From Alphaproteobacteria bacterium (lineage in GTDB: Bacteria; Pseudomonadota; Alphaproteobacteria; Rhodospirillales; Rhodospirillaceae), in NCBI GenBank assembly GCA_003246625.1, contig QJZR01000014.1, positions 7,219-71,218 of the forward strand: a DNA stretch of 64,000 bases. The letters run 5' to 3'. The position numbers and the translations under genes were made by a program. The notes under the pieces were generated by a model. It was not told the origin of the DNA. It saw nothing but the letters and a program-made list of their open reading frames with translations, and ran no database searches. Below are positions 6,439-47,737 of this stretch, piece after piece (position 1 is the stretch's first letter; each line of letters begins with the position of its first letter).

Positions 6439-7005
6439 ATGCCCCCCTCCCTGGCGGTGACGGCGCGGCGCTTGGCGCGCTGGCCGCTGGTCCACTGGAT
6501 GGACCGGCGCCTGGGGTTCCCCGATCGCGGCGGGGAGCCCGACATCGGCTTTCTCGCCGACGATTCCCGCCATTTCGAGCTGTTCGCCAGTTGGCTACAC
6601 GCGCAATGGAGCGCGCCGCGCGGCGAATCCCTGGGTCAGCGGCGCCGGATGCTGCGCGCCCAAATGAACCTGGACCGCCTGCCGATCGCGCTGGTCGCCT
6701 ATTGGCAAGGCAGTCCCGCCGGGATCGTCAGCCTGCGTGCCGACGACCTGCACAGCCGTCCGGATCTGACTCCGTGGCTGTCCGCCCTTTACGTCGATCC
6801 CGCCTTGCGCGGACGCGGTATCGGCCGGGCGCTGGTGCGCGCCACCCTCGACCTTGCCGCCTGGATGGGATACCCCCGCGTCTTCCTGTTCACCACCGAC
6901 CGGCAAAGCCTGTACGCGGAACTCGGCTGGAACCTCCTGCCCAGGCTGCCCGGGGAGGCGAAGCTGTCGCCGCCGCCCGACGTCTTTTCCGCGGCAACCC
7001 GGTAA
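6439..7005 (+). CDS. GNAT family N-acetyltransferase
   Basis: PWLSALYVDPALRGRGIGRALV acetyl-CoA motif; GGAGA RBS before ATG 6439 (start could be later). Confidence 0.85.
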   Translation: MPPSLAVTARRLARWPLVHWMDRRLGFPDRGGEPDIGFLADDSRHFELFASWLHAQWSAPRGESLGQRRRMLRAQMNLDRLPIALVAYWQGSPAGIVSLRADDLHSRPDLTPWLSALYVDPALRGRGIGRALVRATLDLAAWMGYPRVFLFTTDRQSLYAELGWNLLPRLPGEAKLSPPPDVFSAATR

Positions 7006-7204
7006 AACCAGGCCGGGCTCTGCCCGGACCCGCAAAGGGCCTTGGGCCCTTTGATCCCGTTTGTTGGTTTTTCGCCGCGCAACGGCTATCCGCCATCAGG
7101 TTGCCACGTGACGGTTTGATCGCGCTGACGCGCAAAAACTGAAATTCATGGGATCAAAGGGGCTGGCCCCTTTGCGGGTCCGGGCGGCGCCCGGCCTGGT
7201 TTTT
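7004..7204. repeat. Dispersed palindromic repeat, copy 1 (REPIN/MITE-like)
   Basis: About 55-bp imperfect terminal inverted repeats AAAACCAGGCCGGGC..CCCGCAAAGGG..CCCTTTGATCCC around core TTTTCGCCGCG...CGCGCAAAAAC. Confidence 0.9.
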
Positions 7205-7394
7205 ACCGCCCGTGTTCCTCGGGGGAGAAGCGGCGGGCTTCCTCGGCCAGCATGATCGGCACGCCGTCGCGGATGGGATAGGCGATGCCCAGCGCGTCGT
7301 TGACCAGTTCCTGCGCCTCGCGGTCGTAGCGCAGGGGCAGTTTCGACATCGGGCAGACCAGCAGGGAGAGGAGCTTGGGATCGACTTCGGTCAT
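7203..7394 (-). CDS. Trm112/UPF0434 (YcaR) family protein
   Basis: [17 protein letters not shown]...[12 protein letters not shown]. Confidence 0.92.
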
Positions 7395-7410
7395 CGCGGG
7401 GCCTTTCGCA

Positions 7411-8091
7411 TCATTGCGGCGCGTCGCCGCCGCCGGCGACCGCCCCCATTTCCATCAGGGCGCACAGGGCGTTGAAGCGGTGTTCCAGGGTCAACGCCTC
7501 CAGCAGCGCCTGTTTTTCCGGCGTTTCGAAGGGCAGGGCCATCGACAGGGTGACCACCAGCGAGGGCACGGACAGGGCGTCCAGCGCCCTGAGGTCGAGG
7601 TCGAGGGAATGCGCCTCGACATAGCGTTTCAGGGCGGAGACGAGGCGGGCCTTCGGCGCGGAAACCGGGCCGCCCGAGGGGTTGGCGACGTCGTCGCGAT
7701 AGGGGGCGTAGTCCACCGCCAGACGGCGATAGCCCGCCACCGGTTCGGCCTCGGACCGCACGCGGAAACGGCAGATGCCCAGCAGCACCGCCAGCATTTG
7801 GTGGGCGTCGGTTTCGGAAAACTGGACGATGCGGCCGACGGTGCCCACCGAATAGAACGGCTGCGGCGCCTCGCCCACCGTGTCTTCGCCGCCCATCGGC
7901 TGGATCATGCCGAACAGGCGCCCCTGTCCCAGGGAATCTTGCACCAGGGACAGATAGCGCGGCTCGAACACGTTGAGCGGCAGACGGCCCCCCGGCAGCA
8001 GAATCACCCGCGGCAGGGGGAAGACCGGCAGAATCGCCGGAAGGTCGTCGAACCCGGTCGAGAAGGGATCCTTGGGCATCCTCGCCCCCAT
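7411..8091 (-). CDS. LON peptidase substrate-binding domain protein
   Basis: [24 protein letters not shown]; start may be ATG 8079. Confidence 0.9.
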
Positions 8092-8103
8092 GGAAAACCT
8101 TTT

Positions 8104-9021
8104 TTACACCATCAATATCATTTGCAACTGCCGCCGACCGGCCTTGCCCACCGGGTCGGCGGGGCCCAGGGCCTCGATGATCTTGAGCAGCCGCTTGCGC
8201 GCGCCGTCCTCGTTCCAGGAGCGGTCGCGGCGCACGATTTCCAGAAGCTCGTGAAGCGCCGTGGCGGCGTCGCCCCGCGCATAGGCGGACATCGCCAGGT
8301 CGAAGCGCGCCTGGTGGTCGTTCGGATCGGCGTCCAGGCGGGCCTTCGCCGCCTCGGGGTCGATGTTTCCGCCCTCGGCGGCCAGTTCCAGGGTGGCGGC
8401 GACGGCGGCGATTTCCGGGTGTTTCTTCAACTCGTCGGGAATCTGGCCGAGAATCTCGCGCGCCTTGTCCACCCGTCCGGCGGCCAGGTTGCAGCGCAGA
8501 AAACCGGCGATCGCCCCCGGGTTGCCCGGCGCCACCTGAAGAATCTGTTGATAGAGCCCGACCGCCTGGCCGATGTCGCCGTCGGCCAGGGCGGCGCGCG
8601 CGGCGTCCAGCATCGCGTCGATTTGCGCGTTCATCTGCGCGTTGCCGGTCAGGCGGTCGATGAAGGCGGCCAGTTCGCGTTCGCCCTGGGCGCCGGCGAT
8701 CATGTCGACCGGGCGGCCGCCCTTGATCGCGAAGATCGTGGGGACCGAACGCACCTGCATCTGCTGCGCCAGCTGCTGGTTTTCCTCGACGTTGACCTTG
8801 GCCAGTTTGACCCGGCCCTGCGCGCCGCGGACCAGGCGTTCGAGCAGCGGCGTCAACTGTTTGCACGGGCCGCACCAGGGCGCCCAGAAATCGACGATGA
8901 CCGGCACCTGCATCGAGGCGTCGATGACGTCCTGCATGAAGGTCTGGGTGGTGACGTCCTTGACGAGGTCCGGCGCGGCGTTGCCGCCCTGCGCGGCGCG
9001 ATCGCCGAAAATCAAATCCAT
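8104..9021 (-). CDS. ybbN: Thioredoxin-TPR co-chaperone YbbN/CnoX
   Basis: VIVDFWAPWCGPCKQL followed by TPR region ending ARKRLLKIIEALG...RRQLQMIL. Confidence 0.92.
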   Translation of the reverse strand: MDLIFGDRAAQGGNAAPDLVKDVTTQTFMQDVIDASMQVPVIVDFWAPWCGPCKQLTPLLERLVRGAQGRVKLAKVNVEENQQLAQQMQVRSVPTIFAIKGGRPVDMIAGAQGERELAAFIDRLTGNAQMNAQIDAMLDAARAALADGDIGQAVGLYQQILQVAPGNPGAIAGFLRCNLAAGRVDKAREILGQIPDELKKHPEIAAVAATLELAAEGGNIDPEAAKARLDADPNDHQARFDLAMSAYARGDAATALHELLEIVRRDRSWNEDGARKRLLKIIEALGPADPVGKAGRRQLQMILMV

Positions 9022-9079
9022 GACACGCTGATCCGCTTGAAGGTTCCTTGCCCGGTGGGGGGCTTTTTCGCTTCTCAAA

Positions 9080-9106
9080 ATGGGGCTTTCCGTCAGATCA
9101 GGCAAG
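9080..9106 (-). promoter_or_regulatory. Putative RpoH (sigma32) promoter
   Basis: Minus strand CTTGCC-N15-CCCCAT upstream of a chaperone/proteostasis operon. Confidence 0.5.
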
Positions 9107-9153
9107 CCTTAACGGGGATTTGAGCCCCTGTCGCGAGACCGCATTTTTTTTTG

Positions 9154-9181
9154 TTGCATTCCCCGTTATCCCCGATATAGT
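9154..9181 (+). promoter_or_regulatory. Putative sigma70 promoter of tRNA-Gly
   Basis: TTGCAT-N16-TATAGT. Confidence 0.55.
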
Positions 9182-9224
9182 CGCGGGCCTCGGCGGCACC
9201 CACGAGGTGCAAAGCCGGTGGAGC

Positions 9225-9299
9225 GCGGGCGTAGCTCAGGGGTAGAGCACAACCTTGCCAAGGTTGGGGTCGAGGGTTCGAATCCCTTCGCCCGCTCCA
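9225..9299 (+). tRNA. tRNA-Gly (GCC)
   Basis: GCGGGCG acceptor stem, CAACC-TT-GCC-AA-GGTTG anticodon arm, GAGGG-TTCGAAT-CCCTT T arm, encoded CCA. Confidence 0.98.
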
Positions 9300-9305
9300 A
9301 TTTCC

Positions 9306-9345
9306 AAAGGGTCGAACCGGTCTGGTTCGGCCCTTTTGCTTTTTT
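9306..9345 (+). terminator. Intrinsic terminator after tRNA-Gly
   Basis: AAAGGGTCGAACC..GGTTCGGCCCTTT hairpin followed by T-rich tract. Confidence 0.7.
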
Positions 9346-9389
9346 CCGGAAAGGCGGAGAATGCGCCCCGGATCAAGGAGGCTCCCCCG

Positions 9390-9722
9390 ATGAAGATTCC
9401 CGCCCTGCCGTTCACCCTGACCGACTGGTCGAAAGTGCCGGAAACCGTTCACCCCGGCGAAACCGGCCGGGCGCTTTGGCGCACCCTCGAGGTCGGCGAC
9501 ATCCGTATCCGTCAGGTCACCTACGAGCCGGGCTATCTGGCCGACCACTGGTGCGACCGCGGACACATTCTTTATGTGCTGGACGGCGAACTGGAAACCG
9601 AACTCAAGGACGGCCGCCGTTTCACCCTGAAGGCGGGGACGAGCTATCAGGTCTCGGACTTCGGCGACGCGGCGCATCGTTCCTCCACCCGTTGCGGCGC
9701 CACCCTGTTCATCGTCGATTGA
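9390..9722 (+). CDS. DHCW-motif cupin fold protein
   Basis: YEPGYLADHWCDRGHILYVLDGEL; AAGGAGG RBS. Confidence 0.88.
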   Translation: MKIPALPFTLTDWSKVPETVHPGETGRALWRTLEVGDIRIRQVTYEPGYLADHWCDRGHILYVLDGELETELKDGRRFTLKAGTSYQVSDFGDAAHRSSTRCGATLFIVD

Positions 9723-9753
9723 CCGGGACGGCGGATCGGGCCATTCTTTCGGC

Positions 9754-9789
9754 ATATGGATAATTGTACTTCCATATGTTTCGGAGATA
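9754..9789. promoter_or_regulatory. Putative LysR-type operator (copy A)
   Basis: ATATGGA-N10-TCCATATG-N6-AGATA, includes an inverted repeat and a T-N11-A box, directly before lysR ATG. Confidence 0.6.
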
Positions 9790-9793
9790 GCTC

Positions 9794-10711: not shown

Positions 10712-10754
10712 GCCGCCTTCGGTACGGATTTGGGAGGGATAGGGGGGGGAACCT

Positions 10755-10806
10755 GCCGCGCCGTGGGGGAGAAGATCTTTCTCCCCTTGCGGGAGAACGG
10801 CGCGGC
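10755..10806. repeat. Nested inverted repeat containing TTCTCCCCTTGCGGGAGAA
   Basis: GCCGCGCCGT...ACGGCGCGGC outer stem with two alternative inner hairpins; inner motif resembles common alphaproteobacterial REP-like repeats. Confidence 0.5.
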
Positions 10807-10853
10807 GCGGGAGGTGTTGGGGTCTTGATAGGCCATTTCGACGCGTGCCGTCC

Positions 10854-11085: not shown

Positions 11086-11089
11086 ACGG

Positions 11090-11277
11090 AAAGGCGGGCT
11101 CCGCCCGGACCCGCAAAGGGGCTTGGCCCCTTTGATCCCAGAACCTGTTTTCGCCGCGACAGCGGCAATCGACCGTTTCGTGGAAGCGATGGTTTTATAG
11201 CCCTGCGCGCAAAAACCCGGGAAAGGGGTCCAGGGGACCGAGTCCCCTGGTGGGTGTGGGCGAAGCCCACGGGTTTT
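11090..11277. repeat. Dispersed palindromic repeat, copy 2
   Basis: GGGCTCCGCCCGGACCCGCAAAGGGGCTTGGCCCCTTTGATCCC left arm, shared core, CCAGGGGAC-CGA-GTCCCCTGG..GGGCGAAGCCCACGGGTTTT right arm. Confidence 0.9.
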
Positions 11278-12126
11278 TCATCCCGTCAGCCGCGCCCAGT
11301 CGGCGCGCAGCCGGTCGGCGTCGGCGGGGGCGAGGCCGCAGGCGGCAAGGGCGTCGCGCACCGCGGCGACGAGGGCCTCGTTACCGGGCGCGGGGGAGCC
11401 GTCGGGCAGGTGAAGGTTGTTTTCGAAACCGATGCGCGCGTGCCCGCCAAGCAGGGCGGCGGCGCAGGCGCAGGCGGTTTCGAAGCGGCCGAAGGCGCAG
11501 GTCATCCAGTGTTCCGGCCTTGGCAGGCCGGGGGCGAGGAAGGGCAGCAGGTCGGCGGGCGCCGAGGTCTGGCCGACGGTATAGCGGCCGAGGACGAACA
11601 ACACCGGCGGGTCTTCCCACGGGATCAGGCCGCGGCCGCGCAGGCCGTCGAGGCGGGCGAGCTCCTCCGGCGAATAGAGGATGATCTGCGGCAGGATCGC
11701 CTCGCCCTTCATCCAGGTCAGGAATTCGGCGAAGGCGGGTTCGTCGGCGTCGGTGGGGGCGAATTCCCGCAGGGCGAGGGAAATCGCCTCGGGCCGGACC
11801 GCCTTGACCACCGCCATCTGCTCGGCCGGTGCGTAGAGTCCCAGGGACTCGGTGGTCATCTGGATCACCAGGCGGCTGCCCACCGTGCCCTTGACCGCGG
11901 CGATCGCGTCGGCGAAGGCGGCGGCGTCGAGAAGGTGGCCGCCCTGGGCGTTGCGCACGTGCAGGTGGATCATCGCCGCCCCGGCGGCCAGGCAGGCGGC
12001 GGCGGTTTCCGCCATTTCGCGCGGAGACAGAGGGATCGCCGGGTGGTCGGCCTTGGTGCGGCGGCCGCCGTTGGGGGCGACGCCGAGCGCGACGCGATGC
12101 GAAGCGGGAGTGGAAGAATCGCTCAT
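11278..12126 (-). CDS. Beta-keto acid cleavage enzyme (BKACE/DUF849, Kce family)
   Basis: VAPNGG, AGAAMIHLHVRN metal-binding HxH, HARIGFENN. Confidence 0.92.
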   Translation of the reverse strand: MSDSSTPASHRVALGVAPNGGRRTKADHPAIPLSPREMAETAAACLAAGAAMIHLHVRNAQGGHLLDAAAFADAIAAVKGTVGSRLVIQMTTESLGLYAPAEQMAVVKAVRPEAISLALREFAPTDADEPAFAEFLTWMKGEAILPQIILYSPEELARLDGLRGRGLIPWEDPPVLFVLGRYTVGQTSAPADLLPFLAPGLPRPEHWMTCAFGRFETACACAAALLGGHARIGFENNLHLPDGSPAPGNEALVAAVRDALAACGLAPADADRLRADWARLTG

Positions 12127-19779: not shown

Positions 19780-22700
19780 ATGGGCTCTGCACTGTCCATC
19801 GGATCCGAAACCACGGTTGCCGAGATCGTCGCGCATGCGCGGCAGAAAATGCAAGCGGCACGCGCCAGCGCCGAGGAAACTCAGGCGGTGGCCGACTTCA
19901 TCGCCCTGTTCTATCGCAACGTGCCGCCGGGGGACATCCTCGGCAAGCCGGTGGAACATTTGTACGGCGCGGCGCGGTCGGCCTGGGGGCTGTTGCAACG
20001 GCGCCCGGCGAAGACCCTGGCGATTCGCGCCTTCAACCCCAGCTTCGCCGAGCAGGGCTGGTCGTGCGAACACACGGTGGTCGAGATCGTCAACGACGAC
20101 ATGCCGTTTCTGGTGGATTCGGTGAACGGCGCGTTGGCCAACCTGGACCTTGAGGTTCACGGCGTCATCCATCCGGTGGTGGTGGCGGAACGCGACGCGG
20201 CGGGCGGTTTCGTCCGCCTGCTTGCCGCCGGGACCGAGGGCGGCGTGGCGGAATCGGTGATGCATGTCGAGGTGACGCGGCAAACCGGCGCCGACCAGCT
20301 GGACCGCATCGTCGCCGACCTGACCGCGACCCTGGCCGACGTGCGCGCCGCGGTCGAGGATCGGCGGCCGATGTGCCACCGCATCGGCGAGGCGATCGAC
20401 GAACTTCCCGCGGGCGAGGAAGACTGCCACGAATGCCGCGCCTTCCTGGAATGGCTGCGCGACCACCACTTCACCATCCTGGGCTCGCGCGTCTATAGCG
20501 CGGGCAAGGGCGACGGCAAATCCCTGCGCATGGAGCCGGACTCCGGCCTGGGCGTGCTGCGCGATCCCGCCCGCCGGGTCTTCGAGGAATTGCAAACCGA
20601 CGCCGCGGGCCAGGTGGAAAGCCGCATCCTGGGCGACGCCGGCCTGCCGGTGCTGGTCACCAAAAGCAGCCGCCGCTCCACCGTGCACCGCCCGGTGGCG
20701 ATGGACGCGATCGTGGTGAAACGCCGCGACGGAAAGGGTCGGGTCACCGGCATCCGTCTGTTCATCGGCCTGTTCACCGCCGACGTCTATTCCAATTCGC
20801 CGATGGCGGTGCCGATGCTGCGCGGCAAGATCGAACGGGTCGTCGCCGCCGCCGCGATCGACCGCCACAGCCACGACGGCAAGCGGTTGCTCGGCATTCT
20901 GGAAAACCTGCCGCGCGACGAATTGTTCCAGTCCGACGACGAACACCTGGGTCAGGTGGCGGTGGGCATCCTGCAGCTTCAGGAACGCCGCCGCGTCGCC
21001 CTGTTCCTGCGCGACGATCCCTTCGAACGCTTCATGTCGTGTCTGGTCTACGTGCCGCGCGACCGCTTCGACACCGCGTTGCGCCTGGCGGTGCAGGAGA
21101 TTCTGGCGAAGGCCTTCGACGGCACGATTCTGTCCTATTACACCCAGATCGGCGAATCGCCCCTGGCCCGCCTGCACGTCATCGTCGGCACCAAGCCGGG
21201 CGACCTGCCGCCCTTCGACCTGCACGAAATCGAGGCGCGCATCGCCGCCGCCGCCCGCGCCTGGGACGACCAGTTGCGCGACGCGCTTTACCGCGGACGC
21301 GGCGAGGAAAAGGGCGCGGTGCTGCACCGCCGCTATTTCCGGGGGTTCCCGACCGTCTATACCGAACGTTTCGACGCCGAGGCGGCGGTCTTCGACATCG
21401 AGAGGATCGAGGAAGCCCTGAGCGACGGCAAACTGGGGATGAACCTCTATCGTCCGCTCGAGGCCCCGGCCGAGGAAATCCGCCTTAAGGTCTATCGCGC
21501 CGGGCGGGCGGTGCCGTTGTCCGATATCCTGCCGATGCTCGAACACATGGGTCTTAAGGTGATGGAGGAAATCCCCCACGCCATCAAGGTGGCGGGCGGG
21601 GCCGCGACGCCGGGCGGCGCCAACGTCTGGATTCACGATTTCGGCATGCGCGCCGCCCATGGCGGCACCGTCGATATCGGCGCGGTGCGGCACTCCTTCC
21701 AGGAAGCTCTCTCCCGCGTCTGGTCGGGCGAGATGGAGAGCGACGGCTTCAACCGTCTGGTTGTCGCCGCCGGGCTCTCCTGGCGCGAGGTGACCATCCT
21801 GCGCGCCTATGCCCGCTATCTGCGGCAGATCCTGTTCCCCTTCTCGCAAAGCTATCTGGCGCAGGCGCTGGTGGACAACGCGGCGGTCGCCCGCCGCATC
21901 GTCGATCTGTTCCATGCCCGCAACGATCCATTCGGCGATGTGGCGGCGCGCGAGGCGGCCACCGCCCGCGAGGAAGCGGCGATCAACGAGGCCCTGGACG
22001 CGGTGGACAACGCCGACCACGACCGTATCCTGCGGCGCTTCCTCAACCTGGTCCGCGCTACCCTGCGGACGAACTATTACCAGACCGAAACGGATGGATC
22101 GCCGAAACCGACCCTGGCCTTCAAGCTGTTGAGCCGCGAGGTCGAGGAGATGCCCAAGCCCAGGCCTTGGGTCGAGGTCTTCGTCTATTCGCCGAGGATC
22201 GAGGCGATTCACCTGCGCGGCGGCCCGGTGGCGCGCGGCGGCATCCGCTGGTCCGACCGGCCCGAGGACTTCCGTACCGAGATCCTGGGTCTGATCAAGG
22301 CGCAGATGGTGAAGAACGCGGTGATCGTGCCGGTCGGCGCGAAGGGCGGCTTCATCGTCAAGCGGCCGCCCGCCGAGGGCGGGCGCGAGGCCTTCCAGAA
22401 GGAAGGCGTCGAATGCTACAAGCTGTTCATGCGCGCCCTGCTCGGCCTGACCGACAACCTTGCGGGCGGCGCGGTGGTGCCGCCCCGGGACGTGGTGCGC
22501 CACGACGGCGACGACCCCTATCTGGTGGTCGCCGCGGACAAGGGCACCGCTTCCTTCTCGGACATCGCCAACGCCGAATCCCTGGCCGCCGGGTTCTGGC
22601 TGTCCGACGCCTTCGCCTCCGGCGGGTCGCAGGGCTATGACCACAAGGTCATGGGCATCACCGCGCGCGGCGCCTGGGAATGCGTCAAGCGCCACTTCCG

Positions 22701-24621
22701 CGAACTCGGCCGCGACGTGCAGACCGAACCCTTCACCGCGGTCGGCGTCGGCGACATGGCGGGCGACGTGTTCGGCAACGGCATGCTGCAATCGCAGCAG
22801 ACCCGTCTGATCGGCGCCTTCAACCACATGCACGTCTTCATCGACCCCGATCCCGATCCGGCGGTTTCCTTCGCCGAGCGCAAGCGTCTGTTCGACCTGC
22901 CGCGTTCCTCGTGGTCGGACTACGACACCAAGCTTCTTTCCCCGGGCGGCGGCATCTATAGCCGTCAGGCGAAGTCGATCAAGCTGTCGCCGCGGGCGCA
23001 GGCGCGCCTGGGACTGGCCAGCGATACCGTCACCCCGGCCGAGGCGATCCGCGCGATTCTTGCCCTCGACGTCGACCTTCTGTTCTTCGGCGGCATCGGC
23101 ACCTATCTTCGTTCCAGTCACGAAACGGATGCCGAGGTCGGCGACCGCGCCAACGACGCCCTGCGCATCACCGCGAAAGAGGTGCGGGCCAGGGTGATCG
23201 GCGAAGGCGCCAACCTGGGGGTGACGCAACGCGCCCGTATCGAATACGGCCTGCTGGGCGGGCGCATCAACACCGACGCCATCGATAACTCGGCGGGGGT
23301 GGATTGCTCGGACCACGAGGTCAACATCAAGATCCTGCTCAACGAGGTCGTGGCGCACGGCGACATGACCGAAAAGCAGCGGAACGTCCTGCTGGCCAAG
23401 ATGACCGACGAGGTGGGGCACCTGGTTCTGCGCGACAACTATCTGCAAGGCCAAGCGTTGTCGATGATGGAAGCCTGCGGCCCCGACCGGCTGGACGAAC
23501 AGGCCCGCCTGATCCGCCATCTGGAACGCCTGGGCCGCCTGGACCGCGCCATCGAGTTCCTGCCGGACGAGGAAGAGATCGCCGAACGCATCGCCAAGCG
23601 CGGCATCCTCACCCGCAGCGAATCCTCGGTGCTGATGCCGTACTGCAAGATGTGGCTGTTCGACGAGGTGATCGAAAGCGACCTTCCCGACGAACCGCTG
23701 CTGGACAAGGAACTGGTCCGCTATTTCCCCTCCGCCCTGCACAAGGGCTTCACCGAGGCGATTCACGGCCATCGGCTGCGGCGCGAGATCGTCGCCACCA
23801 TCGTCAGCAACGCCCTGGTCAACCGCGTCGGCGGCACCTTCCTTACCGAGATGATGGAAGATACCGGCCGCTCGGTGGCGGACGTGGCGCGGGCCTTCAT
23901 CGTCGCCCGCGATGCCTACCACCTGCCCGACCTCTGGCGGGAGATTGAGGCCCTCGACAACCGGGTCCCGGCGAAGGTCCAGCTGGACATGCTGATCGCG
24001 GTCAACCGCGCGGTGCGCGCCGTGGTTTCGTGGGTGCTGCGCAACGCCGGAACGCGCATCGACATCGGCGGGCTGGCGTCGCGGCTGCGCGGCGGCGTCG
24101 ACGCCCTGATTACCGAGAACGACGCCCTGGGCATCGCGCCGGAAACCCTGGGCGAGGAAGTGAAGTCCTGGATCGCCGAGGGCGTGCCCGAGGACGTCGC
24201 CTATCGCGTCGCGGCGCTGGACCCCCTGGTGGCGGTGCCCGACATCGTTGCCTTGTCGGAAATCCGGCAGGTGCCGGTGCCGGCGGCGGCGCGGGTCTAT
24301 CACCTGGTGGGCGAACGCTTCGGCTTCCGTTGGGCGCGCGCGGCGGCGGCGCAGTTGCCGGTGCGGTCGCATTGGCAGAAGCTGGCGATCGCTGCCCTGG
24401 TCGAGGACTTCTTCGGCCGCCAGCGCGACGTGGCGGGCGGCGTTCTGGCGGAAACGGGGAACAACCCCGCCGAAGCCCTGGCCGCCTTCGTCGCCGCCAA
24501 CGCCTTCGCGGTGGGGCAGGCCGACCGCCTGCTTGCCGAATACCGCGAATCGACGGGGGCGCCCGATCTGGCGATGCTGACCGTCGCGGCGCGCCAATTG
24601 CGCGCCCTGGCGCAGGAATAG
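19780..24621 (+). CDS. gdhB: Large NAD-specific glutamate dehydrogenase
   Basis: 1613 aa; ARGGIRWSDR, KNAVIVPVGAKGGF, VVAADKGTASFSD, GEGANLG, NTDAIDNSAGVDCSDHEVNIK. Confidence 0.97.
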   Translation: MGSALSIGSETTVAEIVAHARQKMQAARASAEETQAVADFIALFYRNVPPGDILGKPVEHLYGAARSAWGLLQRRPAKTLAIRAFNPSFAEQGWSCEHTVVEIVNDDMPFLVDSVNGALANLDLEVHGVIHPVVVAERDAAGGFVRLLAAGTEGGVAESVMHVEVTRQTGADQLDRIVADLTATLADVRAAVEDRRPMCHRIGEAIDELPAGEEDCHECRAFLEWLRDHHFTILGSRVYSAGKGDGKSLRMEPDSGLGVLRDPARRVFEELQTDAAGQVESRILGDAGLPVLVTKSSRRSTVHRPVAMDAIVVKRRDGKGRVTGIRLFIGLFTADVYSNSPMAVPMLRGKIERVVAAAAIDRHSHDGKRLLGILENLPRDELFQSDDEHLGQVAVGILQLQERRRVALFLRDDPFERFMSCLVYVPRDRFDTALRLAVQEILAKAFDGTILSYYTQIGESPLARLHVIVGTKPGDLPPFDLHEIEARIAAAARAWDDQLRDALYRGRGEEKGAVLHRRYFRGFPTVYTERFDAEAAVFDIERIEEALSDGKLGMNLYRPLEAPAEEIRLKVYRAGRAVPLSDILPMLEHMGLKVMEEIPHAIKVAGGAATPGGANVWIHDFGMRAAHGGTVDIGAVRHSFQEALSRVWSGEMESDGFNRLVVAAGLSWREVTILRAYARYLRQILFPFSQSYLAQALVDNAAVARRIVDLFHARNDPFGDVAAREAATAREEAAINEALDAVDNADHDRILRRFLNLVRATLRTNYYQTETDGSPKPTLAFKLLSREVEEMPKPRPWVEVFVYSPRIEAIHLRGGPVARGGIRWSDRPEDFRTEILGLIKAQMVKNAVIVPVGAKGGFIVKRPPAEGGREAFQKEGVECYKLFMRALLGLTDNLAGGAVVPPRDVVRHDGDDPYLVVAADKGTASFSDIANAESLAAGFWLSDAFASGGSQGYDHKVMGITARGAWECVKRHFRELGRDVQTEPFTAVGVGDMAGDVFGNGMLQSQQTRLIGAFNHMHVFIDPDPDPAVSFAERKRLFDLPRSSWSDYDTKLLSPGGGIYSRQAKSIKLSPRAQARLGLASDTVTPAEAIRAILALDVDLLFFGGIGTYLRSSHETDAEVGDRANDALRITAKEVRARVIGEGANLGVTQRARIEYGLLGGRINTDAIDNSAGVDCSDHEVNIKILLNEVVAHGDMTEKQRNVLLAKMTDEVGHLVLRDNYLQGQALSMMEACGPDRLDEQARLIRHLERLGRLDRAIEFLPDEEEIAERIAKRGILTRSESSVLMPYCKMWLFDEVIESDLPDEPLLDKELVRYFPSALHKGFTEAIHGHRLRREIVATIVSNALVNRVGGTFLTEMMEDTGRSVADVARAFIVARDAYHLPDLWREIEALDNRVPAKVQLDMLIAVNRAVRAVVSWVLRNAGTRIDIGGLASRLRGGVDALITENDALGIAPETLGEEVKSWIAEGVPEDVAYRVAALDPLVAVPDIVALSEIRQVPVPAAARVYHLVGERFGFRWARAAAAQLPVRSHWQKLAIAALVEDFFGRQRDVAGGVLAETGNNPAEALAAFVAANAFAVGQADRLLAEYRESTGAPDLAMLTVAARQLRALAQE

Positions 24622-24624: not shown

Positions 24625-24798
24625 AAAAACGAAGCGAGGGGTCTTGGACCCCTCGCGCACCCCATTCCTTTTTCGCCGCGAAGCGGCAATCATTCATCAC
24701 GCGGCGTGATCGGCTGATCGCGCTTCGCGCAAAAACCAAAAGGATGGGATCAAAGGGGCCAAGCCCCTTTGCGGGTGTGGGCGGAGCCCACGGGTTTT
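24625..24798. repeat. Dispersed palindromic repeat, copy 3
   Basis: AAAAACGAAGCGAGGGGTCTTGGACCCCTCGCGC left arm, core with ATCACGC-G-GCGTGAT hairpin, GGGATCAAAGGGG..GGGCGGAGCCCACGGGTTTT right arm. Confidence 0.92.
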
Positions 24799-24813: not shown

Positions 24814-26067
24814 ATGCGGGGCAAGGCGGTTTGGGGGTGGTGTCTATACGACTGGGCCAACTCCGCCTTTCCGACGGTGGTGCAGACCTTCGTGTTTTCC
24901 ACCTATTTCGCCAAGGCGGTGGCGGAAACCCCCGAATCGGGGACCGCGCAGTGGGGCTGGGCGATGGCGGCGGCGGGGGTGGTGATCGCCGTCTTCAGCC
25001 CCTTTCTCGGCGCCATGGCCGATCGATCCGGCCGCCGCACGATTTGGGTGGGCGGGTTTACCGCGTTGATGTGCGTGGCGACCGCCGCCTTGTGGACGGT
25101 GACGCCAGAGCCCGCATCCGCCCTGCCGTGTCTGCTGCTGGTGGCGGCCGCGACAATTTGTTTCGAAATCGCAACCGTATTCTACAATGCCCTGTTGCCC
25201 GTCGTCGCGCCGCCCGAGAAAATCGGCCGCGTCTCCGGCTGGGCGTGGGGGCTGGGCTATGCCGGGGGGCTGGTCTGCCTGGTGGTGGTCTTGTTCGGAC
25301 TGGTCAAGGCGTCGCCCCCGCCCTTCGGCCTCGATCCCGCGCGGGCCGAGCCGGTGCGCGCCGCCGCGCCCTTCCTGGCCGTCTGGATGGCGGTGTTCAC
25401 CTTGCCCCTGCTGCTTTGGGTGCGCGACCCGGCGCCGCCGGGCGCGGGGGGGCTGGTCCACGCCGCGCGGCGGGCGGCGGGCGATTTGGCCGCCGCCATA
25501 CGGGCCTGGCCGCGCGAAGCCCGTATCGGACGCTTCCTGCTGGCCCGCATGCTCTATACCGACGGTCTCAACACCCTGTTCGCCTTCGGCGGCATCTATG
25601 CGGCGGGAACCTTCGGCATGCCGCTTTCCGAGGTCATCGCCTTCGGCATCGCGCTTAACGTCACCGCCGGTCTGGGGGCGACGATTTTCGGTTGGCTGGA
25701 TGACGTTATGGGTCCGAAACGAGTCATTCTGATCTCGCTTGCGGTAATCTCGGTGCTGGGCGCGGTGCTGATCCGGGCTTCCGATCCGCGCCTGTTCTGG
25801 GCGTTGGGGCTGGGTTTGGGAATTTTCGTCGGACCGGCGCAAGCCGCCAGCCGGACCTTCCTTGCGCGGATCGCCCCGCGCGAGGAAATCGGCGCCTGCT
25901 TCGGCCTTTACGCCCTGTCGGGGAAGGTCACCGCCTTTCTCGGCCCGGCGGCGCTGGCCGCCGCGACGACGGCCTGGCAGTCCCAGCGCGCGGGCATGGC
26001 GACCATCTTGGTCTTCCTGCTGGCGGGGGGGCTGCTGCTGGCGGCGGTGCCGAAAACCAGGCCGTAA
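24814..26067 (+). CDS. MFS transporter (UMF1/Atg22-like)
   Basis: WGWCLYDWANSAF, FYNALLP, SGWAWGLGYAGG, YTDGLNT, QAASRTFLAR; ATG 24814 lies just after the repeat. Confidence 0.92.
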   Translation: MRGKAVWGWCLYDWANSAFPTVVQTFVFSTYFAKAVAETPESGTAQWGWAMAAAGVVIAVFSPFLGAMADRSGRRTIWVGGFTALMCVATAALWTVTPEPASALPCLLLVAAATICFEIATVFYNALLPVVAPPEKIGRVSGWAWGLGYAGGLVCLVVVLFGLVKASPPPFGLDPARAEPVRAAAPFLAVWMAVFTLPLLLWVRDPAPPGAGGLVHAARRAAGDLAAAIRAWPREARIGRFLLARMLYTDGLNTLFAFGGIYAAGTFGMPLSEVIAFGIALNVTAGLGATIFGWLDDVMGPKRVILISLAVISVLGAVLIRASDPRLFWALGLGLGIFVGPAQAASRTFLARIAPREEIGACFGLYALSGKVTAFLGPAALAAATTAWQSQRAGMATILVFLLAGGLLLAAVPKTRP

Positions 26068-26236
26068 AAACGAAGCGAGGGGTCTTGGACCCCTCGCGCA
26101 CCCCATTCCTTGGTTTTTCGCCGCGTCAGCGTTTACGCGGCGTGACGGTTTATCGCGCTTCGCGCAAAAAACCAGAACTCGTGGGATCAAAGGGCCCAAG
26201 GCCCTTTGCGGGTGTGGGCGGAGCCCACGGGGTTTT
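26066..26236. repeat. Dispersed palindromic repeat, copy 4
   Basis: First 46 bp and a 30-bp stretch of the right arm are identical to copy 3. Confidence 0.92.
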
Positions 26237-35040: not shown

Positions 35041-35223
35041 AAGGCGGGCTTGTTGAAGGAAAGGTCGCGGACCCTCCGCACCTCCCATTCGTTTGATTTT
35101 TGTGCGCAACGCGATAAAGCCATCACGCGGCGTGATGGTTGATAGCCGCTGACGCGGCGAAAAAGGGAATGGGGTCCAGGGGGCCGAGCCCCCTGGCGGG
35201 TGCGGGCGGAGCCCGCGGGTTTT
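35041..35223. repeat. Dispersed palindromic repeat, copy 5 (reverse orientation, one arm degenerate)
   Basis: CCATCACGCGGCGTGATGG core hairpin, CGCGGCGAAAAA, CCAGGGGGC-CGA-GCCCCCTGG, GGGCGGAGCCCGCGGGTTTT. Confidence 0.88.
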
Positions 35224-35225: not shown

Positions 35226-36623
35226 TCAGAATATCGTCGAGAAGGTGGTGACGGGGCCGCCGCGCAGCATCTCGGCGAGGCGGGAGAGCCCTTCCTCGAC
35301 CTTGGCGCGGGTCTTGCCGCCGCCGAGGCCGAGGCGCACCGCGGGCGGCGCGGCGCGACGGCCGAGGACGAAGTGGTCGGCGGCGGAGACGATCAGGCCG
35401 CGCTGCCGGGCGGCGCGGGTGAATTCGTCGGAACGCCAGGGTTCGGGCAGGTTGAGCCACAGGTGATAGGAGCCGGTGTCCCCCATCACCAGGAAGCCGT
35501 CGAGGGCCTTGAGCGCCAGGTTGCGGCGGGCGCGGGCCTCGGCGCGGTGCCAGCGGCAGCAGTCGCGCGCGGTGCCGTCCTCGATCCAGCGGGTGGTGAT
35601 TTCCAGGGTGATCGGCGCCGGGGTCATGGTCGACAGGCGCACCCCGGCGGCGAGCGCGGGCAAAAGTTCGGTCGGCCCCAGCATGTAGCCGACGCGCAGG
35701 CCCGGCGCCATGCATTTTGCCGCGCTGTTGAGATAGATGGTGCGTTCCGGGGCCAGGGCGGCCAGCGGCGACAGGCGTTCGGTATCCTCGGCGAGGAAGC
35801 CGTAGACGTCGTCCTCGATGATCCATACGCCGTGGCGGTTGGCCAGCCGGGCCAGGGCCTCGCGCCGGTCGCGCGGCCAGACGGTGCCGGTGGGGTTCTG
35901 GAAGTTGGGCACGCAATAGACGGCGCGCGGCGCGTGGTGGACGATGGCGTGTTCCAGCGCCTCGGTCGTCATGCCGTGGTCGTCCATGGTCAGGCCGAGC
36001 AGGCGCACCCCCAGCAGGCGGGCGAGGTTCTTCATGCCGGGATAGGTGAACTCGTCGCAGAGAACGGTGTCGCCGGCGCGGCAGATGGTCAAGAGCGCCG
36101 CCAGCATGCCGTTCTGCGCGCCGTTGTTGAGGATCAGCCGGTCGGGGGCGAAGGGGGTGCCCTGGCTTTCCGCCCAGGAGGCGAGGATGCGGCGCGAACG
36201 CTCTAGTTCCGTGTCGCTGGGATAGCCGAGCAGCGCATCCAGGCGCGGGTCGGCGGTCAGGCGGGGCAGGGTGTCGCGCAGGCGTTCCGCGGCGATGCCC
36301 TCGGCGGGCAGGTTGACCGCGAAGTCGAAGACGTTGGGTTCGGAGTCGTGGCGGGTGGTGAGCGGGGTGAAGGTCATCAGCCCCGGTTTGACGAAGGTGC
36401 CGCGCCCGACCTCGCCGCTCAGCAGATCGCGGCGGATCGCCTCGGCATAGGCGCGGGTGACCGTGCCCACCGTCACCCCCAGGTTCTGCGCCAGATCGCG
36501 ATGGGTGGGCAAACGTTCGCCCGGCGCCAGTTCGCCGGTGGCGATGGCGTCGGCGATGGCTTCGGCAATGGCGATATAGCGCGGCCCGCTCCGCGCCGAG
36601 AGGTCGGGAACCCAGCTTGTCAT
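35226..36623 (-). CDS. MocR/GntR-family PLP-dependent transcriptional regulator
   Basis: RYIAIAEAI..GERLPTHRDLA..VGTVTRAY HTH plus aminotransferase-like domain (IIEDDVY, SAAKCMAPGLRVGY). Confidence 0.95.
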   Translation of the reverse strand: MTSWVPDLSARSGPRYIAIAEAIADAIATGELAPGERLPTHRDLAQNLGVTVGTVTRAYAEAIRRDLLSGEVGRGTFVKPGLMTFTPLTTRHDSEPNVFDFAVNLPAEGIAAERLRDTLPRLTADPRLDALLGYPSDTELERSRRILASWAESQGTPFAPDRLILNNGAQNGMLAALLTICRAGDTVLCDEFTYPGMKNLARLLGVRLLGLTMDDHGMTTEALEHAIVHHAPRAVYCVPNFQNPTGTVWPRDRREALARLANRHGVWIIEDDVYGFLAEDTERLSPLAALAPERTIYLNSAAKCMAPGLRVGYMLGPTELLPALAAGVRLSTMTPAPITLEITTRWIEDGTARDCCRWHRAEARARRNLALKALDGFLVMGDTGSYHLWLNLPEPWRSDEFTRAARQRGLIVSAADHFVLGRRAAPPAVRLGLGGGKTRAKVEEGLSRLAEMLRGGPVTTFSTIF

Positions 36624-41960: not shown

Positions 41961-41969
41961 TTCCGTTCC

Positions 41970-44020: not shown

Positions 44021-45381
44021 CGACAGTCTCCGATCAGGGCAGAAATCGCGGTCAGATGCCGGGCGACGGCGGGTTCGTCGCCCCGGCTTTCGATATTGAG
44101 GCGCAGCAGCGGCTCGGTGTTGGAACGGCGCAGGTTGAAGCGCCAGTCCGGGAACTCCAGGGAGACGCCGTCGGTGTCGTCGCGCTTGGGCCCCAGCGGC
44201 AGGTAGTGGTCGAGGATGCGGGCGGTGGCCGCCGCCGCGTCGGTTTCGAAGTTGATCTCGCCGCTGCAGGGAAAGGCGGCCATGCGTTCGCCCACCAGGG
44301 CGGCCAGGCTGCTGCCGCTTTTTCCCATCAGTCCGGCGACCAGCAACCAGGGGATCATGCCGCTGTCGCAATAGGCGAAGTCGCGGAAATAGTGATGGCC
44401 GCTCATCTCGCCGCCATAGACCGCATCCTCGGCGCGCATGCGTTCCTTGATGAAGGCGTGGCCGGTCTTGCACCGCACCGGAACGCCGCCCATGCGGCGG
44501 ACATCGGCGACGGTGCTCCATTCCAGGCGCGGGTCGTGGACGATTTTTGCGCCGGGATGCTTTTCCAGCATCGCGCAGGCGAGCAGGCCGACCAGATAGT
44601 AGCCCTCGATGAAATGGCCTTCCGCGTCGTAGAGGAAGCAGCGGTCGGCGTCGCCGTCCCAGGCAACGCCCAGGTCGGCCTTGGCGTCGCGCACCGCCCG
44701 TGCGGTCTTTTCGCGCATCTCGGGCAGCAGCGGGTTGGGAATGCCGTCGGGGAAGTCGCCGTCGGGCTTGCAACGCACCGGCACGATGCGGCAGGGCAGG
44801 CGCTTCGCCAGTTCGGCGACGATCGGCCCGGCGCAGCCGTTGCCCGCGTCGGCGACGATGGTCAGGCGGGCCAGCGCGGACGTGTCCACATACCCCAGCA
44901 GATGGTCGAGATAGGCGGCGCGGTCGGCATCGCGGCGCACCCGTCCCGGTTTCGCCGCGGAGGGCGGCGCGGCGGCCAGGGCTTCGGCGCGGTCGCGGAT
45001 GGCGGTAAGCCCGGAATCGCCCGAGATCGGACGCGCGCCCCGGCGCACCAGCTTCATGCCGTTGTAGCCCTTGGGGTTGTGGCTGGCGGTGACCATGATG
45101 CCGCCGCCGACACCGTCCTTTTCGCGGTGGGCGGTCTGGAAATAGACCTCCTCCGTCGCGCAAAGGCCGATGTCCACCACGTCGGAACCGCCTTCGGCCA
45201 AGCCCGCGATCAGGGCGGCGGCCAGTTCCGGGCTTTCCAGGCGGGCGTCGCGGCCGACCACGGTGGTTCCGGGGGCGATTTCCTCGGCGAAGGCGCGGCC
45301 GATGCGCCGCGCGATGTCGGCGTTCAGGGTGGCGGGAACCTCGCCACGGATGTCGTAGGCCTTGAAGCAGGACAGGGTCAT
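44017..45381 (-). CDS. manB: Phosphomannomutase
   Basis: [49 protein letters not shown]. Confidence 0.95.
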
Positions 45382-45424
45382 GGCCGGGCGGTCCGATTCC
45401 GGAGGTGGAGCGGTTTCCTCGGCA

Positions 45425-46426
45425 TCAGAAAAGCAATCCGTCGAGGGGTTGACCGTCGAGGCGGGCGCGTTCCGCTAGGGCCATGCGGCGCGCCACTTCG
45501 TGCATGCGGGTGCGGGCCGTCCAGCCGAGCTTTTCCTTCGCCTTGGCGGCGGAGCCGAAGCCGTAGTGGATTTCCGAGGGCCGCAGCAGCGATGGGTCGC
45601 TGGCCACGTGTTCCCGCCAGTCGAGGCCGAAGGCGGAAAATGCCGCCGCCGCGAAATCTGACAGCGGGTTGACCTCGCCGGTGGCGATGACGAAGTCCTC
45701 GGGCTCCGGCCGTTGCAGCATCGCCCACATCGCTTCCACGTATTCCGGCGCCCAGCCCCAGTCGCGTTGCACCGACAGGTCGCCCAGGCTGACCGTGCCG
45801 CCGCCGTCGCGGGCGATGCGCGCCGCCGCCGCCGTGATCTTGCGGGTGACGAAGCGGCCGGGCCGTATCGGCGATTCGTGGTTGAACAGGATGCCCGAGC
45901 AGGCGAACAGGCCATAGCTCTCGCGGTAGTTGGCCACCTCCCAGAAGGCGGTGGACTTGGCCACCGCATAGGGGCTGCGCGGCCGGAAGGGGGAGGATTC
46001 GTCCGCCGCGACGTCGCCGGTGTTGCCGAAGCATTCCGACGATCCGGCGTTGTAGAAACGGATCGGCGCGGCCAGGAAGCGCAAGGCCTCCAGCACGTTC
46101 AAGGTAGCGGTGGCGATGCTTTCCAGGGTCTCCACCGGCTGCTGGAACGAGAGCCAGACCGAGCTTTGCCCCGACAGGTTATAGATCTCGTCCGGTTCCA
46201 CCCGCGCGATTGTCTGCAACACGCTGCGGAAATCGGTGAGAGCGGTGGAATGTACCGTCACCCGGTCGCGCAGGCCGAGGGTGGCGAGGTTGGCGAACGA
46301 ACTGGCCTCGGCATCGCGCGAGGTGCCATGCACCGCATAGCCCTTGCTCAGCAGAAGATGCGACAGATAGCCGCCATCCTGGCCGGAAATGCCGAATATC
46401 AGCGCGGTCTTGCGAGGTGACGCCAT
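45425..46426 (-). CDS. gmd: Second GDP-mannose 4,6-dehydratase-like enzyme
   Basis: [51 protein letters not shown]. Confidence 0.88.
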   Translation of the reverse strand: MASPRKTALIFGISGQDGGYLSHLLLSKGYAVHGTSRDAEASSFANLATLGLRDRVTVHSTALTDFRSVLQTIARVEPDEIYNLSGQSSVWLSFQQPVETLESIATATLNVLEALRFLAAPIRFYNAGSSECFGNTGDVAADESSPFRPRSPYAVAKSTAFWEVANYRESYGLFACSGILFNHESPIRPGRFVTRKITAAAARIARDGGGTVSLGDLSVQRDWGWAPEYVEAMWAMLQRPEPEDFVIATGEVNPLSDFAAAAFSAFGLDWREHVASDPSLLRPSEIHYGFGSAAKAKEKLGWTARTRMHEVARRMALAERARLDGQPLDGLLF

Positions 46427-46493
46427 GGAAAGGTCCGGGCCGGAGAAAGGGAAAAGCCGAAGGCGGGAATTGTCGGCGAGGCGGGGGGCAAAG

Positions 46494-47132
46494 TCAATTC
46501 GAGGGCCCGGTCGCGCCGAGGGCGTCGATCCGCGCGGCGATGCCGGAAAGATCGTCGAGCAAGTCCTCGGCATCGGGGCATCGCGCCAAGCTGCCGTCGG
46601 TGAGGCCGACGAAGGCGCAGCCCACCGCCCGGGCGCCCGCGCGGTCGTCGGCGCCGTCGCCCACCATCAGCATTTCGGCGGGCGCGCAAGCGGCGGCGGC
46701 CAGGATCGCGCGCAGGTTCGGTTCCTTGCTGGCGTGGCCACCCAACACCCCGGCGAAGCTGTCCGGCGGATAGCGCCGCGCCACCACGGCGCGCAGGGGC
46801 GCCTCGGGCGTCGCGCTGTTGATCCAGGCGGGGATGCCCCGCCGCCGCAACTCGGCCAGGCAGGCGTCTGCGCCGCGCCGTTCCGGACAGGCCAGGATGC
46901 GGGTTTCGCACCAGGCGCCATAGGCCTCCGCCAAGTCCCCGGCGTCGGCGCCGTGGCGCGCGGCGAAGGCGGCCATGATCGCGAACCGGTCGCCCGGCGG
47001 GTCGGCGAGCAGGCGTTCCATTTCCGCCGCGCCGCCGGGGAAGCCGTTGGCCACCGCGAAAAAGCCGTCCCGCTTGATCGCGTTGGACAGCACCAGGGTG
47101 CCGTCGAAATCGAACACCACGCAGCGGATCAT
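46494..47132 (-). CDS. HAD family hydrolase
   Basis: VVFDFDGTLVLS motif I, NSATP motif II, MVGDGADD motif IV; ATGA overlap with EVE gene. Confidence 0.9.
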   Translation of the reverse strand: MIRCVVFDFDGTLVLSNAIKRDGFFAVANGFPGGAAEMERLLADPPGDRFAIMAAFAARHGADAGDLAEAYGAWCETRILACPERRGADACLAELRRRGIPAWINSATPEAPLRAVVARRYPPDSFAGVLGGHASKEPNLRAILAAAACAPAEMLMVGDGADDRAGARAVGCAFVGLTDGSLARCPDAEDLLDDLSGIAARIDALGATGPSN

Positions 47133-47542
47133 GGCGCCACCCCGCCCATCGCGCAGATGCGCGCCCAGGCGTCGTCGGGTACCGGCATCACCGACAGGCG
47201 CACCTGCTTCACCAGCGCCAGCTCGGCCAGTCGTGGATCGGCCTTGATCTCCGCCAGGGTCACCGGATGGGGCAGGGGCGCCGCCGCCCGGACCATCACC
47301 TGGACGAAGCGGCCGGAGGGATCGCCGGGGTCGGGCTCCGCCTCGCCCACCACTTCGAGAATGCCGACGATCCGCTTTTCGGTCACCGAGTGATAGAAGA
47401 ACGCGGTGTCGCCGACGCGCATCGCCTTCAGGTTCTTCGCCGCCTGATGGTTGCGCACGCCGTTCCACGGCGCGGCGTCCACCGCCACCTGGTGCGCCCA
47501 CCCCCACTCGTTCGGTTCGGACTTCATCAGCCAATGCGCCAT
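47129..47542 (-). CDS. EVE domain protein
   Basis: HWLMKSEP, WNGVRNHQA, MRVGDTAFFYHS, RLSVMPV. Confidence 0.95.
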   Translation of the reverse strand: MAHWLMKSEPNEWGWAHQVAVDAAPWNGVRNHQAAKNLKAMRVGDTAFFYHSVTEKRIVGILEVVGEAEPDPGDPSGRFVQVMVRAAAPLPHPVTLAEIKADPRLAELALVKQVRLSVMPVPDDAWARICAMGGVAP

Positions 47543-47554
47543 GTCGGGGCTCCC

Positions 47555-47737
47555 AAAACCCGCGGGCTCCGCCCGCACCCGTAAAGGGCCGCTGGCCCTT
47601 TGATCCCATTCCTTAAGGCTTTTGCGCGAAGCGCGACAGGACGGTCGCTTCCGCGCGATGGTCGATTGCCGCTGACGCGGCGAAAAACCATAACGCATGG
47701 GATGCGCGAAAGGCCCAAGGCCCTTCGCAACGTTTTT
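47555..47737. repeat. Dispersed palindromic repeat, copy 6 (reverse orientation, inside the tsaD operon)
   Basis: AAAACCCGCGGGCTCCGCCC, AAAGGGCC-GCT-GGCCCTTTGATCCC, core CGCGGCGAAAAA, GCGCGAAAGGCCCAAGGCCCTTCGC. Confidence 0.9.

Follow-up and report, generated by a model that had tools for sequence, protein, structure and literature searches.

Six non-coding elements of 170-200 bp, scattered through a 64,000-nucleotide stretch of alphaproteobacterial DNA (hereafter the window), are built from one shared core and a few interchangeable hairpins, and they raise the question of whether such a set is a mobile repeat or a collection of transcription terminators. The window lies on contig C13 (QJZR01000014.1, positions 7,219 to 71,218 of the forward strand) of GCA_003246625.1, a 100%-complete assembly of 2,685,285 bp in 20 contigs with 67% G+C (range 65-69%). 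The reading favored here, with a probability of roughly 60%, is that the elements belong to an old, non-autonomous composite palindromic repeat located at gene 3′ ends, where it would serve as a bidirectional Rho-independent terminator or 3′-end stabilizer. Terminator function is suggested by the placement of the elements against stop codons, their outward-facing hairpins with T tracts, compensatory change in those hairpins, retention of occupied sites between species, and the simple terminators found in element-free relatives.

Anatomy and extent of the family

An initial annotation had placed six elements in the window, in both orientations and all intergenic, and alignment together with purpose-written gene calls bore this out for each of them (e1-e6). 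Their mutual alignment spans ~200 columns with a mean column identity of 71%. All six share a core consisting of an invariant left word, TTTTCGCCGCG, a central hairpin, and ATCGCGCT.CGCGCAAAAAC, and the flanking hairpins A, B, and D were also found as described, in an order that varies among copies. The elements, the parts of e1, and a seventh, partial family member are as follows.

7004-7204, unstranded: e1, A-B-core-B-A, a near-perfect 200-bp palindrome filling the gap between convergent genes; its terminal A/T runs overlap a TAA stop (7003-7005) and a minus-strand stop (7203-7205)
7013-7027, minus strand: left A hairpin of e1, CCGGGC-AGA-GCCCGG (minus-strand reading) followed by CCTGGTTTTA, from the terminator scan
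7033-7053, unstranded: left B hairpin of e1, CAAAGGGCC-TTG-GGCCCTTTG
7069-7138, plus strand: core of e1, with three small hairpins (GCCGC/GCGGC, ACCATCACG/CGTGATGGT, and GCGC/GCGC) closed by TTTT/AAAA
7155-7174, unstranded: right B hairpin of e1
7180-7204, plus strand: right A hairpin of e1, CCGGGC-GGC-GCCCGG followed by CCTGGTTTTT, from the terminator scan
11090-11277, plus strand: e2, A-B-core-B'-A, core at 11148-11215; the right end abuts the stop of a minus-strand gene ending at 11278
24625-24798, plus strand: e3, D-core-B-A, core at 24670-24735; begins 3 nt past the TAG of a 1613-amino-acid gene, with a major facilitator superfamily (MFS) gene downstream
26066-26236, plus strand: e4, D-core-B-A, shortened core at 26115-26170, between convergent genes; its first bases overlap the TAA of the MFS gene
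35041-35223, minus strand: e5, minus-strand core at 35097-35163, left arm degenerate and D-like, right arm B-A; the right end is 2 nt from the stop of a gene ending at 35226
47555-47737, minus strand: e6, minus-strand core at 47620-47686, left arm A-B, right arm D; the D end overlaps the stop of a gene ending at 47737
148-208, unstranded: solo, core-less D-like hairpin, AAAACG-GCGCGAAGGGCC-TTG-GGCCCTCCGCGC...GGTTTTT, the seventh and partial member, filling the gap between convergent stops (TAA at 145-147 and TCA at 209-211)

The density of copies in the window had been taken to imply many more genome-wide, and this is the case. An iterated nhmmer search seeded with the six copies returned 262 matches that collapse to 133 loci with a median length of ~166 model positions, and a separate core-only profile found 90 cores, 67 of them full length. 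Nearly every locus was matched on both strands with similar scores, and the whole element is therefore a long imperfect palindrome. It is an inverted dimer of a multi-hairpin unit, in the order end module, linker, quasi-palindromic core, linker, end module. Reading outward from the center, each half comprises half a core, the linker GGAATGGGAT (complement ATCCCATTCC), an end module, and a terminal GTTTT (AAAAC in the opposite half). Within the core, TTTT/AAAA closes three small hairpins, and the left and right halves are inverted copies that have diverged from one another, as they have in e1. Folding of e1 gave a single 209-nt hairpin at -141.8 kcal/mol; asymmetric copies gave multi-branched structures at -84 to -106 kcal/mol.

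Two alternative end modules occur. The B-A module carries two GC hairpins, for example CAAAGGGGCC-AAG-CCCCTTTG, GCGGGT, and CCGGGC-NNN-GCCCGG, and the D module carries one, GCGAGGGG-N5-CCCCTCGC, followed by AACG. Among 70 cores sorted by a simple pattern test, the ends were BA/D in 13, BA/BA in 12, D/BA in eight, and D/D in five, the rest being partial or unclassified, so that both end types pair in all combinations on either side of a core that itself occurs in both orientations. A second core type (core2) was found in ten copies, each side of which has an A hairpin and a B-type hairpin, with the B-type hairpins differing in sequence (CTGGGGCC... versus CCGGAGGG...) around a center of AAAA-GGGCCNCC-loop-GGNGGCCC-TTTT. 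The core2 copies are the most similar in the genome, at up to 94.7% identity, and all ten fill the entire gap between convergent genes. With four end pairings, either core orientation, and a second core, the family is a combinatorial mosaic of palindromic units in the sense used for bacterial interspersed mosaic elements (BIMEs). Strictly palindromic hairpins lie inside the 133 loci in 27 of 38 cases for A, 35 of 37 for B, and 66 of 75 for D; 80 kb sampled from the element-free relative G004 held no A or D hairpin and a single B-like one.

The initial annotation did not recognize the family as a named element, and no match to one was found here. Rfam returned no family match, the elements giving only chance-level scores far under the cut-offs, and no description of the family was found in the literature searched, in which the genus is named only in its 2024 taxonomic description. 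Two tRNA genes, at 9225-9296 and 54538-54609, are the sole Rfam matches at gathering score in the window. BLAST against a plasmid collection gave no match to the family, and no sequence resembling the integration host factor consensus was seen by eye in the core.

Forty relatives, covering the same GTDB genus (12 genomes), 13 other genera of the family, and 16 other families, were searched with a covariance model of the core. It gave between 42 and at least 118 matches in ten of the 12 genus members (118 candidates per genome being the most that the search scores), two in G005, and none in G004, and no convincing match in the other 13 genera or 16 families. An exact-pattern scan of public genomes found multiple copies only in O. 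naphthae Y-M2 and five metagenome-assembled genomes (MAGs) labeled Rhodospirillales or Rhodospirillaceae; matches elsewhere were scattered, mostly one per genome, and were taken as chance. As judged by these matches, the family is restricted to one genus, comprising Oleispirillum naphthae and related MAGs. The best DNA match to the window is a hydrothermal-vent metagenome.

Old sites, shuffled contents, and the search for an enzyme

With some 130 homologous copies at loci otherwise unrelated, and with two congeners and the other genera lacking it, the family must have spread by a duplicative process, and it would thus have originated as a non-autonomous element of the kind represented by BIMEs, miniature inverted-repeat transposable elements (MITEs), or REPINs, which are paired repetitive extragenic palindromic (REP) sequences. 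The initial annotation had proposed just such a mobile family. Dispersal, modularity, non-coding palindromic structure, and duplicative spread all agree with that proposal; no sign of current mobility was seen.

The closest relative, G011, has flanking proteins ~75-98% identical, is syntenic with window positions 1-35,000, and carries elements at the orthologous sites of e1-e4 (four of four). The e3 site is occupied in six relatives (G011, G001, G006, G010, G003, and G007, which is O. naphthae), holds only a solo D hairpin in G002, and is empty in G004 and in G005, where a 93-bp gap contains a simple hairpin. At the e4 site the architecture is D-core-BA, D-core-D, or A-B-core2-B-A depending on the species, with nothing in G005, and the e5 site is occupied in G001 and O. 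naphthae. Element-free orthologous sites (in G005 and at metagenome loci L140 and L142) have a simple hairpin or canonical terminator instead. A small number of fixed terminators had been the alternative raised against a mobile family: the copies are far from few, at 133, yet their sites are indeed conserved across species, those of e1-e4 in the closest relative and that of e3 in six.

What occupies these sites is less stable. Between orthologous copies the core may be inverted, an A or B variant may be swapped for another variant found family-wide, and the A and D loops may carry nested extras. Orthologous copies are 50-71% identical, compared with 64-69% for the median paralogue and 78-85% for the best paralogues, and the genes flanking them are ~70-87% identical at the nucleotide level. 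Within the genome, nearest paralogues are 79% identical at the median and 94.7% at most, with no near-identical pair. Conserved occupancy and the lack of near-identical pairs together indicate an old resident family. Occupancy is old and vertically inherited, and content turns over by exchange among copies; neither the nearest-paralogue identities nor the conservation of sites across species gave any sign of current mobility or of a recent burst. Turnover would involve exchange of end modules, inversion of cores, and hairpin loops that are flipped or given nested inserts, its likeliest causes being exchange between copies, by recombination or gene conversion, and template switching inside the palindrome.

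The same observations could be taken further, to a set of non-mobile host terminator modules spread only by ectopic gene conversion or recombination and kept by selection. In its favor are sites that stay occupied while their architecture is reshuffled, orthologues that are no closer than paralogues, the strong compensatory upkeep of the end hairpins, and a terminator-like core2 center. Conversion, however, needs prior homology and by itself cannot place a 180-bp composite at ~130 unrelated loci; G004 and G005, which are element-free, have unrelated simple hairpins at the same sites, and abrupt presence or absence at the genus level is typical of an invading repeat. Spread by conversion alone is accordingly given a small probability.

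One pair of copies may illustrate the exchange. The MFS gene at 24877-26067 is bracketed by e3 and e4, which are co-oriented and the most similar copies. Capture of this gene as a composite transposon was considered and rejected: it has the same locus and neighbors in the element-lacking G005 and G004, which shows that the repeats neither captured nor moved it. Local gene conversion is the likelier source of the 46-bp arms that are identical in e3 and e4. Unitigs of the source-metagenome assembler end at repeat arms (window positions 24654 and 26095), and one contig joins the core of e4 to that of e3 (26126 to 24715), both typical repeat-collapse artefacts; short-read assemblies of these genomes thus fragment at the family.

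The absence of a transposase from the window, claimed initially, was upheld for the five families searched, namely PF01797 (Y1_Tnp, which includes RAYTs, the transposases associated with REPs), IS110, DDE_Tnp_1 (IS4/5), DDE_3 (IS630), and rve. The further suggestion that an HUH/RAYT-type enzyme elsewhere mobilizes the elements found no support. REPs are palindromes of 20-40 bp, tagged at one end with an unpaired GTAG or CGTC (PMC3733652), and a REPIN is an inverted doublet with a spacer that folds into one hairpin, extragenic and in high copy number (PMC3116915). The present elements are likewise extragenic inverted doublets that fold as one hairpin, in high copy number, and in these features and their vertical persistence they resemble a classical REPIN/REP family moved in trans by a single-copy RAYT (PMC3116915). 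PF01797 nonetheless had no match in the genome holding the window (G000), although the same search was positive in six control genomes, and none of the ten element-rich genomes in the genus had one. Its sole match in the genus lies in G005, the genome with two cores, on a 3-kb contig that has none of the family's modules in its flanks. Beside the A, B, and D stems there is no conserved GTAG or CGTC tag, these letters being only variably present inside the loop of core hairpin 1, and the units are larger and more composite than REPs. Mobilization by a RAYT is very improbable on this evidence.

The other classical option is an ordinary MITE, derived by deletion from an insertion sequence (IS) and moved in trans by a DDE transposase that reads its terminal inverted repeats. 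The family is within the usual MITE bounds (<400 bp, non-coding, multi-copy), has inverted ends with AAAAC/GTTTT termini, and is absent from two genus members; some ends read TAAAAC...GTTTTA, a possible hint of a TA target. Target duplication of TA was examined and is not supported: the terminal T run is followed by C in ~59%, A in ~24%, and G in ~18% of ends, no TA or other repeat is apparent, and the closest comparators are 75-86% identical. About one third of the copies have non-homologous ends (D versus B-A) sharing only AAAAC, no pair of copies exceeds 95% identity, and sites are conserved between species. IS110 occurs in the genus in G009 only, DDE_Tnp_1 is absent from G000, O. naphthae, G008, G002, and G011, and DDE_3 is absent from G000, O. 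naphthae, and G011; the two rve copies of G000 both lie on foreign islands, and three element-rich genomes have no rve. The IS110, IS4/5, IS630, and rve transposases do not track element presence, and a conventional MITE is quite unlikely. A Pfam scan of open reading frames (ORFs) in low-GC regions left uncalled by the gene caller found no transposase; these ORFs encode integrases, replication and primase proteins, defense-type genes, and an HNH_2 endonuclease.

Several foreign or expanded sequences were noted along the way. Two low-GC islands of G000 outside the window, C5:73510-75654 and C12:56179-58183 (54-58% G+C), each lie between two partial elements, A..core on the left and core..B-A on the right. 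One carries the HNH_2 endonuclease and an ORF without assigned function, the other a DUF3800 protein. The HNH gene was considered as a driver of the elements and discarded, as it is not conserved in the genus; the islands are thus cargo inserted at repeats, and foreign DNA may integrate preferentially at the repeats. Another island gene of G000, at C19:16960-18752 and likewise outside the window, has as its product a YagK/YfjJ_C / REP_ORF2-G2P protein whose HPHYHV motif is HUH-like; its neighbors are genes of integrative elements (DUF3987, integrase), and it shows no association with the repeats. G009 has at least 108 DDE_Tnp_1 matches (IS5-like, ~145-amino-acid frames, several with in-frame stops) in a 2.4-Mb genome, an IS expansion on a scale not seen in the other eleven genomes of the genus.

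Inserts also lie within hairpin loops. A ~53-bp two-hairpin insert (CCGCC..GGCGG, then GGGAACGCCCA..GGGCGTTCCC) is nested in the D-hairpin loop at different loci in two species, in opposite orientations: at ~64690-64770 of contig C10 in G000, and at locus L119 of O. naphthae, which lies between orthologues of window genes 19780-24621 and 24877-26067. Locus L118 of G011 has further inserts within A and D loops, and hairpin loops seem to act as insertion points. Nested inserts in A and D loops, embedded stops (TAAAAC/GTTTTA), Watson-Crick pairing on both strands, and the absence of five transposase families leave some room for a non-classical route of copying, in which a genus-specific enzyme acting on hairpin DNA, or template switching during replication or repair combined with loop insertion, would install at gene ends a cassette of stop codon plus two-way terminator. 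Such a route is tentatively entertained, at low odds.

Placement at gene ends and upkeep of the hairpins

The favored reading of a gene-end repeat depends on where the copies lie. Genes were called with a purpose-written method using third-codon-position G+C (GC3) and codon usage, which gave 2,333 genes covering 88% of the genome. The 133 loci fall between convergent genes in 59 cases, tandem genes in 67, and divergent genes in seven, against a background of 327 convergent, 1,660 tandem, and 326 divergent regions (2313 in total), an enrichment between convergent genes with an odds ratio of 5.7 (p = 1.7e-18). At convergent sites the median distance from element end to stop codon is 4 nt, with 47% within 3 nt, and at tandem sites elements lie 10 nt from the upstream stop versus 69 nt from the next start. 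Stop codons are often within the terminal run itself, as TAAAACC, TAGAACC, TGAAACC, and their complements.

Each element end bears an outward-facing GC hairpin and, after it, a T tract. Four or more T in six nucleotides were found at 74-76% of element ends, whether facing a stop or a start, compared with 31% of other gene 3′ ends; because T-richness is equal at stop- and start-facing ends, the tract belongs to the element and is no by-product of stop codons. A consensus terminator scan placed the outward-facing end hairpins among the top terminator-like sites of the window. In e1, the left A hairpin looks like an outward-facing terminator of minus-strand transcripts and the right A hairpin like one of plus-strand transcripts, and the core2 center looks like a bidirectional intrinsic terminator. 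No promoter-like site was associated with the elements in a scan of the window.

Constraint on structure is concentrated in the ends. The three-hairpin structure of the core is 92% paired, which is not above shuffled controls; covariation in it was not significant against shuffled partners, and the most variable pair of its central stem is unpaired in 19 of 45 copies. The A hairpins (n=115), by comparison with shuffled stems, are strongly maintained: stem positions 5 and 6 carry four Watson-Crick pair types each and are 96-97% paired. The same holds for the B hairpins (n=93), in which positions 7 and 8, which fall outside the six pairs used for hairpin selection, carry four pair types each and are 97-99% paired. 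Stem-wide mean pairing is 85% for A and 96% for B, against 62-69% with shuffled partners, and the observed pairing was reached in none of 500 shuffles, statistics that are somewhat inflated by the relatedness of sub-families. G-T pairs are rare at the variable positions, and with Watson-Crick pairs kept and few G-T, pairing is therefore maintained on both strands. Such upkeep is compatible with transcripts that enter from either direction, or with hairpins recognized at the DNA level.

Folds of this stability, and compensatory change in the end hairpins, could also be expected of a structured non-coding RNA family, in the form of small RNAs or cis-regulatory leaders, instead of a DNA-level repeat. 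Such RNAs are hard to reconcile with copies in both orientations relative to flanking genes and lying after stops, not before starts, with Watson-Crick pairing that has almost no G-U and holds on both strands, with the non-significant covariation of the core, with the absence of any Rfam match above chance, and with the lack of associated promoter-like sites. An RNA family is extremely doubtful.

For a gene-end repeat that terminates transcription, a transcript entering from either side would read through the element, allowing the long hairpin and the end hairpins to fold, and transcription would stop at the distal GC hairpin and U tract, directly after the stop codons. Termination of this kind would explain the enrichment between convergent genes, the abutment of stops, the retention of sites across species, and the both-strand compensation in the end hairpins.

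Several points weigh against this account. The case for termination is made from sequence, and enrichment at 3′ ends could mean tolerance of insertions, as argued for pneumococcal repeats. The T tracts are short, mostly of 4-5 T, and often lie 3-5 nt past the short A stem. Gene context depends on the purpose-written, GC3-based caller; the gene starts at e5 and e6 are supported by orthologue alignments. The transposase census is limited to five families, and a metagenome scan for strain-level empty sites yielded three relatives only, at 75-86% identity, and none closer.

Relation to known repeat families

The closest analogues, by likeness of organization, are the SPRITE and BOX elements of Streptococcus pneumoniae, with BIMEs and the enterobacterial repetitive intergenic consensus (ERIC) as further ones. 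SPRITE has AAAA/TTTT termini and a long stem with a U-rich tract resembling a Rho-independent terminator, shows the strongest over-representation between convergent genes, lies near the 3′ ends of coding sequences, has no matching IS and no known transposase, and inserts anew slowly; BOX is built in modular fashion from interchangeable sub-elements (PMC3049150). The present family shares with SPRITE the termini, the stem with T tract, the convergent enrichment, and the proximity to stops, and with BOX its modularity. Unlike either, it is GC-rich rather than AT-rich, occurs in an alphaproteobacterial host, and has no sequence similarity to them. It is also a true inverted dimer of ~180 bp with two alternative end modules and with stops often inside the terminal A/T run.

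Extragenic inverted doublets in many copies, sites between convergent or tandem genes, and vertical persistence are common to this family and to REPINs and REPs (PMC3116915, PMC2817692, PMC3733652), but the family is without a RAYT or GTAG/CGTC tag and its unit, at 85-100 bp and with 2-4 hairpins, exceeds the 20-40 bp of a REP. Escherichia coli BIMEs likewise lie at gene 3′ ends and are mosaics in which palindromic units of alternating orientation are joined to further conserved motifs (PMC2817692); their sequence is unrelated, and the mosaic described here is a symmetric dimer around one core rather than a tandem array. ERIC, also known as IRU, of Enterobacteriaceae is similarly an imperfect palindrome of >100 bp in transcribed intergenic regions with internal indels at fixed points (PMC3184786). 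Its mobilizing enzyme is not known, and RNA-level effects have been proposed (PMC3184786). ERIC-type elements are reported to have terminal inverted repeats and flanking TA, whereas the present family shows no TA duplication and can have non-homologous ends.

Intergenic repeats already described from Alphaproteobacteria include RIME (Sinorhizobium/Rhizobium) and CIR (Caulobacter) (PMC2573895, PMC3184786). Membership of the present family in either is unlikely because the core model found nothing outside the genus. RIME and CIR do share with it an alphaproteobacterial host, an intergenic location, and a palindromic mosaic character.

The family contributes a well-defined modular palindromic repeat, without a RAYT, from Oleispirillum, a little-studied genus of Alphaproteobacteria with one cultured species, O. 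naphthae. Left unmasked, such repeats could mislead the prediction of small RNAs and terminators and the annotation of gene ends. Conserved occupancy, shuffled architecture, and compensatory change in the end hairpins make the family a convenient system for asking how REP-like repeats persist and homogenize without a dedicated transposase, and whether they are co-opted as bidirectional terminators. Set beside SPRITE, BOX, BIMEs, and ERIC, it is a previously undescribed example of a familiar class of bacterial intergenic repeat rather than a new kind of system.

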